Shown here piece after piece: positions 25,230 through 25,954 of a stretch of DNA of 34,669 bases. Under the pieces are notes generated by a model. It worked only from the letters and a program-made list of their open reading frames with translations. It did no database searches and was not told where the DNA came from. Positions within the stretch are counted from its first letter, which is position 1, and every line of letters begins with the position of its first letter. The stretch lies in IMG/VR virus record IMGVR_UViG_2872158770_000004; one strand, given 5' to 3'. Both the position numbers and the translations under genes were made by a program. The DNA is from a virus (lineage: Duplodnaviria > Heunggongvirae > Uroviricota > Caudoviricetes).

Positions 25230-25308
25230 CGTAAAAACTGCTTCAATTCTTGTACGCTTCGCAAAGCTGTACCGCGAGGCGAATAGCAGACATGGACATT
25301 TGAAAGAG

Positions 25309-25330
25309 CCCGCTTTATGCGGTTTTTTTT
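25309..25330 (+). terminator. tR'-like short hairpin plus T8 run downstream of the Q-like gene
   Basis: CCGC-TTTAT-GCGG followed by TTTTTTTT; TTGACG -35-like hexamer at about 25226. Weak stem. Confidence 0.35.
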
Positions 25331-25418
25331 ATACCTGAAAAACGGCACAGGACGTTAAACGTGCTGGTGGTCAGATGAGTTTGCAGATGTGATGACATAT
25401 GGTTATTATTCTGCCTCC

Positions 25419-25495
25419 GGCCCTTTAGCTCAGTTGGTCAGAGCGAGCGACTCATAATCGCCAGGTCGCTGGTTCAAGTCCAGCAAGGGCCACCA
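25419..25495 (+). tRNA. tRNA with anticodon CAT, ileX/ileZ-like (Ile2 by similarity; Met cannot be excluded from the anticodon alone)
   Basis: 77 nt, cloverleaf GGCCCTT...AAGGGCC-A-CCA, anticodon loop CTCATAA; close to the E. coli ileX sequence as I recall it. Confidence 0.8.
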
Positions 25496-25496
25496 A

Positions 25497-25573
25497 CCAC
25501 CACTAGCTCATCCGGATAGAGCATCAACCTTCTAAGTTGACGGTGCGAGGTTCGAGTCCTCGGTGGTGGGCCA
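25497..25573 (+). tRNA. tRNA-Arg (anticodon TCT)
   Basis: 77 nt; acceptor CCACCAC/GTGGTGG, anticodon loop CTTCTAA, T-loop TTCGAGT, encoded CCA. Confidence 0.8.
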
Positions 25574-25575
25574 GC

Positions 25576-25651
25576 GCCGACTTAGCTCAGCAGGCAGAGC
25601 AACTGACTTGTAATCAGTAGGTCACCAGTTCGATTCCGGTAGTCGGCACCA
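25576..25651 (+). tRNA. tRNA-Thr (anticodon TGT)
   Basis: 76 nt; acceptor GCCGACT/AGTCGGC, anticodon loop CTTGTAA, encoded CCA. Confidence 0.75.
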
Positions 25652-25654
25652 TAT

Positions 25655-25729
25655 GCGGGCATCGTATAATGGCTATTACCTCAGCCTTCCAAGCTGATGA
25701 TGCGGGTTCGATTCCCGCTGCCCGCTCCA
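25655..25729 (+). tRNA. tRNA-Gly (anticodon TCC), glyT-like
   Basis: 75 nt GCGGGCATCGTATAATGGCTATTACCTCAGCCTTCCAAGCTGATGATGCGGGTTCGATTCCCGCTGCCCGCTCCA. Confidence 0.88.
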
Positions 25730-25954
25730 GTCAGAGTCTTTCAGTCTGCGATGATGGGAAATCCCGGAGTGACTGAAAGACGTTTAAGTTATGAATGATC
25801 GCCTTTTTTTGCAAAATTGCTGTGCAGAAATACTAACCTTCGGGCGTGCGATCATTCATAAGCACTCTGCTTTTATTCCGATTAACTGTGGGTGGTTTGT
25901 TGGATAGAGTGTGAGGTGTACTGGCAATAGCGGACACTACCATTTGTTCTTTTT

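Follow-up and report, generated by a model that had tools for sequence, protein, structure and literature searches.

A late-leader tRNA cassette with a conserved structured trailer in a lambdoid prophage of the Rac family

What do four tRNA genes do in the late-operon leader of a prophage, and what are the two long inverted repeats that follow them? Both questions are raised by positions 25230-25861 of the IMG/VR virus record IMGVR_UViG_2872158770_000004, a stretch of 34,669 nucleotides (nt) that we analysed at its full length and call the window below. A first-pass annotation had described this region as a cluster of four tRNAs downstream of a Q-like gene, with a tR'-like element and two inverted repeats that might serve as processing or termination structures for the tRNA transcript. 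Our analysis places the cluster in the late-operon leader of a decayed Rac-family lambdoid prophage, between Q/tR' and the holin gene, in the overall order Q, PR' leader, tR', tRNA promoter, tRNAs, trailer, terminator and holin. The explanation that we consider probable as a whole is an autonomous tRNA cassette within the late leader, which would supply decoders for rare codons and whose trailer RNA would provide processing or stability elements.

Four tRNA genes and the codons they serve

Across the whole 34.7-kb window ARAGORN finds exactly four tRNA genes, all on the plus strand, and the Rfam tRNA model RF00005 scores them, in gene order, at 70.5, 56.4, 69.8 and 64.9 bits, all above threshold (gathering score 29). 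The two methods agree with the loci and anticodons originally proposed: a CAT tRNA of the tRNA-Ile2 type (ileX/ileZ-like, 25419-25495), a tRNA-Arg (TCT) with a phage-type body (25497-25573), a tRNA-Thr (TGT, 25576-25651) and a tRNA-Gly (TCC, 25655-25729). The tight packing noted at first pass is confirmed by the sequence, with intergenic spacers of 1, 2 and 3 nt and a CCA encoded at the 3' end of every tRNA. The span assigned to the cluster, 25230-25861, does start at the first base after the Q stop codon, but its first part, 25230-25418, consists of leader, terminator and promoter and holds no tRNA. Matches of the minus strand to the Rfam family Plastid-ycf2 are mirror images of the tRNAs.

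ARAGORN labels the CAT tRNA as Met. This is the usual mis-call for such genes, and it is contradicted both by likeness to ileX and by the acceptor stem. Compared with the tRNAs of E. coli K-12, the CAT tRNA is 90% identical to ileX, 69% to metT/metU and less to metZ; it shares 74 of 77 positions with ileZ of Shiga toxin (Stx) phages, and near-identical copies are labelled tRNA-Ile by the Prokaryotic Genome Annotation Pipeline (PGAP). Its acceptor stem, GGCCCTT/AAGGGCC, contains C4:G69 and C5:G68, where metT has U4 and A5. These are the pairs by which E. coli TilS distinguishes tRNA-Ile2 from tRNA-Met (PMC11947777). Because the TilS pairs are kept, and given the match to ileZ and the PGAP label, the gene is, judging by its sequence, an AUA-reading tRNA-Ile2 and not a tRNA-Met, and its product would be expected to undergo lysidine modification.

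The remaining three genes stand in differing relations to the host. The Arg-TCT gene is only 73% identical to host argU, and it is therefore a distinct, phage-type tRNA; it shares 64 of 77 positions with argN (TCG) of Stx phages. The Thr-TGT gene matches host thrU at 74 of 76 positions, with both differences in the D-loop and an identical anticodon stem-loop, and the Gly-TCC gene is identical to host glyT over all 75. These last two were evidently copied from the host thrU-tyrU-glyT-thrT-tufB operon. Unlike their host counterparts, the prophage Thr and Gly genes are adjacent, with a 3-nt spacer, and lack tyrU and the 116-nt spacer between them; glyT is followed by thrT in the host, the prophage Gly copy by a trailer. 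A further difference from host ileX, thrU and glyT is that the prophage cassette would be driven by a phage-borne promoter.

All four tRNAs decode codons that are served by single or low-copy host genes. The codon-usage check suggested at first pass was carried out by comparing three phage gene sets, namely the open reading frames (ORFs) of the window that do not belong to insertion sequences (IS), the early genes of the intact phage PhiR47_1 and its late genes, with 48 K-12 genes. AGA, AUA, ACA and GGA are enriched 2- to 7-fold in all three phage sets, the late genes included (p ≤ 5e-5 throughout). Ranked by phage/host ratio among the 61 codons, AGA comes 2nd, AUA 3rd, ACA 4th and GGA 7th; the codon that ranks 1st, AGG, can also be read by a UCU tRNA. 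By simple arithmetic, four picks would all fall within the top seven by chance with a probability of about 7e-5. The enrichment ranks of the cognate codons fit codon supplementation.

The cassette belongs to a known class, the late-leader tRNA units of lambdoid phages. Its counterpart in Stx phages (933W, Sp5/VT2-Sakai, Stx2a_F349) is the ileZ-argN-argO array, for which a search of the open-access literature with all three gene names found no paper. Like the window array, ileZ-argN-argO lies downstream of Q and tR' and upstream of late genes, begins with a homologous tRNA, carries the same tRNA body in its second position and has the same promoter motif before its first tRNA; it is closed by a terminator, as are the arrays of intact relatives of the window. 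The two differ in composition, which is Ile2-Arg(UCU)-Thr-Gly in the window and Ile2-Arg(UCG)-Arg(UCU) in Stx phages, the last two window genes being the copies of thrU and glyT. They also differ in what follows: the window-type array continues into a three-hairpin trailer of about 220 nt before its terminator, whereas in an Stx2 phage the terminator comes about 15 nt after argO; the next gene downstream encodes the holin in the former and is stx in the latter.

The second position of the array (window 25497-25573; slot 2 below) is variable between phages. In the variants that we looked at (in the related loci L003, L008, L012, L013, L031, L057, L080, L083 and L143) it is occupied by one homologous tRNA body, with constant acceptor, D and T arms and an encoded CCA, and a changing anticodon stem-loop. 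The anticodon is UCU in the window, UCG in argN of Stx phages and, most commonly, UUU accompanied by C33, which PGAP calls tRNA-Lys; a further state has loops of 5-6 nt, for which ARAGORN gives Phe-aaa, Leu-taa, Stop-tta or undetermined. With Rfam the UCU form scores 56 bits, the UCG form 43 and the UUU form 44, and the short-loop variants fall below threshold. This variation is either decay or anticodon switching. Other positions also change. In several E. coli genomes resembling enteroinvasive E. coli (EIEC), a gene named tRNA-Val by PGAP (L002, 4426-4496; L007, 2422-2492) is an altered Gly copy in which TCC has become TAC, part of the acceptor 3' strand is deleted and CCA has become CAA; it is a decaying Gly gene with no new specificity. 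The Thr copy beside it carries two anticodon-stem changes as well. Finally, recombination has produced a chimeric tRNA in L005 (about 2423-2500), where the 5' part of the Arg gene is joined to the 3' part of the Gly gene.

Promoter, trailer and terminators of the cassette

The array appears to have its own sigma-70 promoter (25381-25418, plus strand), composed of a -35 element TTGCAG (25381-25386), a 17-nt spacer, a -10 element TATTAT (25404-25409) and a GC-rich discriminator (25410-25418). A promoter scan called the site in an adjacent register, with TTTGCA at 25380-25385, an 18-nt spacer and TATTAT ending at 25409. The argument for this promoter is comparative. We gathered 131 related loci by a conserved core pattern, and their upstream flanks are otherwise unrelated. 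The motif TTGNNN-N16-18-TAYHWT, ending 6-11 nt before the first tRNA, is nevertheless present in all 29 distinct flanks, against 0.4% of shuffled flanks, and in these flanks a GC-rich discriminator follows the -10 motif. The same promoter motif stands upstream of ileZ in an Stx2a phage. Furthermore, in phage Sp5 a primary transcription start site (TSS) driving the tRNAs has been mapped between tR' and the tRNAs (PMC7547250).

At the other end of the array, both of the inverted repeats reported at first pass are real, with coordinates that needed shifting by at most 3 nt. The first is, as described, a perfect repeat of 11 bp (GTCTTTCAGTC / GACTGAAAGAC, 25736-25746 and 25771-25781); the second proved to be a perfect repeat of 14 bp, not 12 (TTATGAATGATCGC / GCGATCATTCATAA, 25789-25802 and 25848-25861). 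Among inverted pairs within 150 nt of each other in 760 nt, chance would give about 0.03 such 11-mers and about 4e-4 such 14-mers (arithmetic). Relative to shuffled sequences, the two hairpins have folding z-scores of -3.5 and -3.35, and the whole 182-nt spacer one of -4.1. Hairpin 1 (25736-25781) combines the 11-bp repeat with a small inner GGG/CCC stem. Hairpin 2 (25789-25861) is formed by the 14-bp repeat; inside it lie a further hairpin of 8 bp and an apical loop that is conserved. Folding and alignment added hairpin 3 (GCACTCTG...TAGAGTGC), which occupies 25862-25911 with its last base at 28431, beyond an inserted element. All three are on the plus strand.

This structure is shared by the relatives. 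RNAalifold, applied to 28 non-redundant copies, returns both repeats as helices with inner hairpins, and in the extended alignment A3 it recovers the third hairpin and the terminator too. The 63 pairs predicted for A3 are formed in 98.3% of cells, compared with 40-46% when the partners are slid by 1-3 columns. Helix 1 comprises 13 pairs, is 98.8% paired and shows 2 compensatory pairs (3 in the shorter alignment A1); helices 3 and 4 of hairpin 2 reach 98-99.5% pairing, with 3 compensatory pairs in helix 3 and 1 in helix 4; and helices 7 and 8 of hairpin 3 are 97.7-99.5% paired. In hairpin 3, 10 of 26 sequences have both partners of three stem pairs replaced without a broken pair, and at least four versions of the stem are seen. 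Many positions show G·U pairs either invariably or frequently (e.g. A3 columns 19-41, 26-37, 145-181 and 83-101). Their equivalents on the opposite strand would be A·C, so the structure belongs to plus-strand RNA and not to DNA or an antisense transcript.

The position of the structure is equally constant. Of 132 loci, at least 114 have hairpin 1 beginning 6 nt past the tRNA-Gly CCA, and a 3' remnant of tRNA-Gly is kept in most of the others. The trailer also stays with tRNA-Gly where the Q gene and the holin differ. Given this fixed link, and as the terminator follows directly in arrays ending in argO, the repeats are part of a trailer RNA specific to tRNA-Gly. They are thus not the isolated elements of the first-pass annotation: together with the third hairpin they form one conserved plus-strand trailer, about 220 nt in length, that is joined to the last tRNA. 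In L011 a fusion lies upstream of hairpin 1, with the 5' half of tRNA-Gly running straight onto the hairpin-1 loop.

Of 5426 complete E. coli genomes, 540 contain the trailer spacer; phage records that have it are few, among them HK639 (75% identity). The copies fall into two clades that are about 75% identical to each other, and across both the apical loops AAUUGCUGU (hairpin 2) and GGGUGGUUUGUUGG (hairpin 3) are kept. As far as Rfam 15 and the searchable literature reach, the structure is undescribed: no Rfam 15 family matched the trailer down to E=5, and its core sequences had no match in the searchable literature. BLAST found no similarity between the trailer and the pasA, pasC and pasD loci of strain E2348/69, so that an identity with PasA, PasC or PasD was rejected. 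The hairpin-1 loop (25747-25759, CUGCGAUGAUGGG) resembles the target motif reported for PasA (CUGAUGAUGG / CUGAUGCUGG), a small RNA (sRNA) of enteropathogenic E. coli (EPEC).

Several other identities were tried for parts of the trailer and rejected. Hairpin 1 is not a degenerate 3' half of tRNA-Gly, with which it has only GATGATG in common, a similarity equalled by 433 of 2000 shuffles. A 38-codon ORF starting at the ATG at 25792, in the 5' arm of hairpin 2, contains a T-run of 7, 8 or 9 in near-identical copies, which shifts its frame. A 43-residue minus-strand ORF annotated in phage 689R5 overlaps hairpins 2-3, a stretch whose G·U pattern speaks for the plus strand.

Terminators flank the unit on both sides. 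The tR'-like element of the first-pass annotation is present upstream of the tRNA promoter as an intrinsic terminator (25301-25331, plus strand; fold z=-3.2), though it is weak: its core stem is CCGC/GCGG (25310-25322) followed by T8 (25323-25330), and a consensus terminator scan of the window did not call it. The stem is stronger in L001 and L002, with GCGGG in place of the GCGG of the window, and in L003 a terminator occupies the tR' position within unrelated sequence. Downstream, relatives carry a terminator of the form GCCCGC-TTTT-GCGGG(C/T) plus a T-run about 60 nt past the second repeat, and the second clade has a different one, GCCTCGC-TTCG-GCGAGG plus T, in the same place. The window retains the weakest form of this terminator (28456-28476, plus strand; GCCCGC-TTTT-GCG and T7), with a 3-bp GC stem, and an IS has displaced it by 2.5 kb. 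In the lineage of the window both flanking terminators have been weakened by G-to-T changes, each extending the T-run: GCGGG has become GCGGT at 25319-25330 and GCGTT at 28466-28476.

A reading of the tR' region as a homologue of IsrK was rejected, with 14.1 bits (E=2.2) for the window and 19.9 bits (E=0.15) for L001; only the layout of a hairpin plus a terminator is common to the two, and true isrK and C4 copies lie elsewhere in the window.

The prophage around the cassette

The gene upstream of the cassette (24675-25229, plus strand) encodes a Q-type late antiterminator, as the first-pass annotation had supposed: its product matches Pfam DUF1133 (E=2e-107) and Phage_antitermQ (29.4 bits against a cut-off of 26), and weakly the Q21 structures 6p18/6jnx (E=4e-4), and homologues in Rac-family phages are annotated as antitermination protein Q. 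A minus-strand ORF at 24746-25348 is antisense to this gene and was dismissed as a functional gene. The leader that follows (25230-25284, plus strand) is inherited with the Q gene, in that blocks of Q homology elsewhere run to 25284. It contains a predicted hairpin (25255-25281) and is expected to hold PR' and the Q loading site; neither a promoter scan nor a reading of the sequence found a convincing -10/-35 hexamer pair in 25215-25260 that would pin PR'. On the far side of the cassette, the first late gene is that of a class II (phage 21 S-type) holin (28541-28756, plus strand; Pfam Phage_holin_2_1, E=1e-35), and lysozyme and Rz genes follow it (Pfam). Near-identical E. coli loci without an interruption read DUF1367, YbcO, Q, four tRNAs, about 290 nt and holin. 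Intact copies are carried, for instance, by E. coli FDAARGOS_944 (NZ_CP065613.1, about 5.0214-5.0221 Mb), by APEC O1 and by phage PhiR47_1. One near-identical relative sits at the Rac locus, between ttcA-intR and sitABCD; this site fits a match in the window (4160-4338, 207 bits) to RalA, an antitoxin RNA typical of Rac prophages.

The window copy is interrupted by IS600, itself carrying a second IS3-family element (25912-28427), as seen from the junction sequences and by BLAST against uninterrupted relatives. The second element, which we take to be IS911-like from its OrfA, splits IS600 at 26729-27977. The insertion is flanked by a 3-bp target duplication, GTG (25909-25911 and 28428-28430); the inserted element is named IS600 by PGAP in L002, and the junction at 25911/25912 is common to the IMG/VR contigs L027, L049 and L087. 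The insertion point falls in the last base pairs of hairpin 3, so that the tRNA-holin spacer of about 290 nt is split by about 2.5 kb and the trailer is severed from its own terminator and from the holin. The tRNA genes and the promoter are still intact despite this. A further IS600 cuts the terminase gene of the window, as BLAST against relatives shows. From the high IS load and the cut terminase we conclude that the prophage is defective and that its genome of origin resembles Shigella or EIEC. The IS600-type transposase ORFs of the window number at least six, among them 535-1353, 6359-7177, 8806-9624, 17810-18628 and 31786-32604, along with three IS1-type or IS1-like ORFs (19185-19688, 22701-23204 and 33239-33742).

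Other small RNA modules occur in the window and its relatives. A sok antitoxin RNA lies at 22269-22443, with a hok-like ORF at 22381-22593. A C4 antisense RNA and isrK adjoin at 11511-11699 on the minus strand and form a P1-type antirepressor control module. In L001 (3166-3367) a C4/isrK module and an ORF6N (Ant-like) gene stand between Q and the tRNA cassette; that of the window, unlike L001, is away from the cassette and on the opposite strand. In clade-B relatives an STnc100 RNA directly follows the trailer terminator (L031, 2211-2417; 53 bits against a gathering score of 47), so that several RNA modules are stacked between the tRNAs and the lysis genes.

A model for the cassette and the rival readings of its repeats

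We propose that the sigma-70 promoter would start a transcript 1-3 nt upstream of the first tRNA. This transcript would carry Ile2 (CAU, reading AUA after lysidine modification), Arg (UCU), Thr (UGU) and Gly (UCC), followed by the trailer of about 220 nt, and in intact relatives it would stop at the intrinsic terminator just upstream of the holin gene. With that terminator closing the unit, the tRNAs could be made in the lysogen without expression of the lysis genes. During lytic growth, Q-modified polymerase coming from PR' would pass both terminators, placing the tRNAs on the late transcript as well; this step rests on the established model of lambdoid antitermination. In either state the tRNAs would boost four decoders that are limiting in the host and whose codons the phage uses in excess. 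As for the trailer, the preferred reading within this model, on which we are about evenly divided, is that of a processing and stability module. The 6-nt A/U-rich single-stranded linker GUCAGA after the CCA of tRNA-Gly would leave room for endonucleolytic 3' maturation, and the RNA downstream of the cut would open with a very stable helix that could resist exonucleases and 5'-end-dependent decay. In lysogens the RNA protected in this way would be the trailer; after induction, with the tRNAs excised, it would be the 5'-terminal part of the long late mRNA.

A number of points weigh against this model. Taken alone, the promoter score of the window is not above chance, and the promoter at the window locus is based on motif conservation and on a TSS from a homologous but different phage. 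Both window terminators are weakened, the downstream one lying 2.5 kb off, so that the logic of the cassette is broken here. Concerning the trailer, the 11 pairs of A3 with changes on both sides map mostly to the split between the two clades, and counts of such pairs or pair types do not exceed those in shuffled data (11 against 9.7; 122 of 500); the invariance of the hairpin-1 loop arises partly by construction, as the copies were gathered with a pattern for that loop. Concerning codon supply, overall codon adaptation is no different between lambdoid phages with and without tRNA genes (PMC4631060). Furthermore, the Thr and Gly genes, being identical or nearly identical to host genes, can add dosage only, and Gly decays in L002 and L007, which argues against strong selection for this gene in lysogens.

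It is possible, and we advance this only tentatively, that the trailer instead acts in trans. Hairpins 1-3 and the terminator would then be freed as a 3' external transcribed spacer (3'ETS) is, and would work in the lysogen as an sRNA or as a sponge of host sRNAs, bound by Hfq or ProQ; the repeats might form a scaffold and the conserved loops might be sites of interaction, a division of labour that we put forward with the same caution. The promoter-to-terminator layout, closed at the 3' end by a Rho-independent terminator that has a U-tail, suits such an RNA, as do the loops AAUUGCUGU and GGGUGGUUUGUUGG with their conservation across two clades. The 3'ETS-leuZ RNA, listed in an EPEC data set, reportedly shows that the 3' trailer of a tRNA can act as a sponge. 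Like the trailer, 3'ETS RNAs are the segment between the last tRNA and the operon terminator, co-transcribed and releasable by 3' processing; the trailer differs in being phage-borne, much longer and more structured, and its release is a prediction. In other prophages the same leader position also holds proven sRNAs, namely StxS, PasA/PasC/PasD (beside the holin gene) and STnc100 (after the trailer of L031), RNA modules that end in terminators and are stacked in the interval from Q to the lysis genes. StxS, however, arises from PR' upstream of tR', while the trailer lies downstream of the tRNAs; STnc100 and other Rfam families have no match inside the trailer; and a PasA fragment from an EPEC supplement matches, as its reverse complement, the plus strand of the E2348/69 locus in the interval from the esterase gene to the holin gene, which places PasA on the strand opposite to the late genes there. 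The lack of an Rfam family, of similarity to the Pas loci and of a literature match for the core sequences speaks against a regulatory RNA. So does the very tight fold of the trailer, with few long single-stranded stretches, and its constant attachment to tRNA-Gly is equally explained by a role in processing. Complementarity of the loops to transcripts of the window or of PhiR47_1 is limited to matches of 8-10 nt, no better than with shuffled loops, host targets having not been searched. An extended form of this idea seems doubtful to us: a new phage-borne family of regulatory RNAs, constitutive in lysogens, freed by tRNA 3' processing and acting on host RNAs or RNA-binding proteins, combined with an anticodon-switching tRNA in slot 2 (UCU, UCG, UUU) that would adapt decoding or evade anticodon nucleases.

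The tRNAs themselves might serve mainly in counter-defence, replacing host tRNAs destroyed by anticodon nucleases, a function of phage tRNAs that has been proposed and shown (PMC10264068; PMC12409363). The PARIS effector AriB cleaves tRNA-Lys(UUU), Thr(UGU) and Asn(GUU) (PMC12409363), and arrays related to that of the window carry exactly Thr(UGU), the UUU variant of slot 2 and Asn(GUU); moreover, the UUU variant has the stem UAAGU|U where the cleaved form has UAAUC|A. This variant is decay-like, however, with its C33, a T-stem mismatch, U73 and a score of 44 against 56 bits, and the short-loop forms are sub-threshold. In the window, slot 2 is a canonical Arg(UCU), and Thr(UGU) keeps the host stem-loop including the AriB site U36AAUC|A41 (PMC12409363); neither this gene nor Gly, a copy of glyT, would escape a nuclease that cuts the host copy. 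As the tRNA set also matches the rare codons most enriched in the phage, counter-defence is an unlikely role for the window copy and an unlikely main purpose of these tRNAs. That the repeats are terminators or insulators which end the tRNA transcript, half of the first-pass proposal, is very unlikely. The stems are stable (-22.5 and about -25 kcal/mol) and stand directly after the last tRNA, upstream of lysis genes that must be kept silent in the lysogen. Neither stem, though, is followed by a U-tract (GTTTAAGTT and GCACTCTGC follow), the terminator scan called neither, their loops of 24 and 45 nt are far outside the geometry of intrinsic terminators, and a canonical terminator is conserved about 60 nt downstream in both clades. 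The other half of that proposal, processing, is a plausible role, and the view of the repeats as structures of the transcript is borne out. We find it hardly credible that the repeats act as DNA, whether as protein-binding or recombination sites or as the remnant of a small mobile element, or that they are chance palindromes in a decaying prophage. The region is indeed a mosaic junction, its arrays rearranged by recombination (the chimeric and fused tRNAs of L005 and L011), and IS600 targeted hairpin 3 in the window and in three other contigs. Against this, the many G·U pairs would be mismatched as A·C in a cruciform or when read from the opposite strand, pairing is preserved by compensatory changes, the position relative to tRNA-Gly is fixed without flanking target duplications, and perfect repeats of 11 and 14 bp are far beyond expectation; the 38-codon ORF in hairpin 2, broken by variation in T-run length, is a further point against a DNA-level element.

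Returning to the autonomous cassette, its tRNA part is ordinary, a further rare-codon unit of the kind known from Shiga-toxin phages. Its CAT tRNA should carry the Ile2 annotation, and phage records and ARAGORN are, on the present evidence, wrong in giving it as Met. With a conserved stringent-type promoter and a terminator of its own, such a cassette would allow the lysogen's tRNA pool for AUA, AGA, ACA and GGA to be changed without induction, which may be relevant to how E. coli and Shigella express AT-rich genes acquired by horizontal transfer. The repeats, for their part, reveal a conserved structured RNA that lies outside the RNA family databases and is found in about 10% of complete E. 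coli genomes. Should the trailer prove stable, it would be a tRNA-trailer-derived addition to the prophage RNAs encoded between Q and the lysis genes; and if the regulatory reading were true, such an RNA would be carried by roughly one in ten E. coli genomes and by Shigella.

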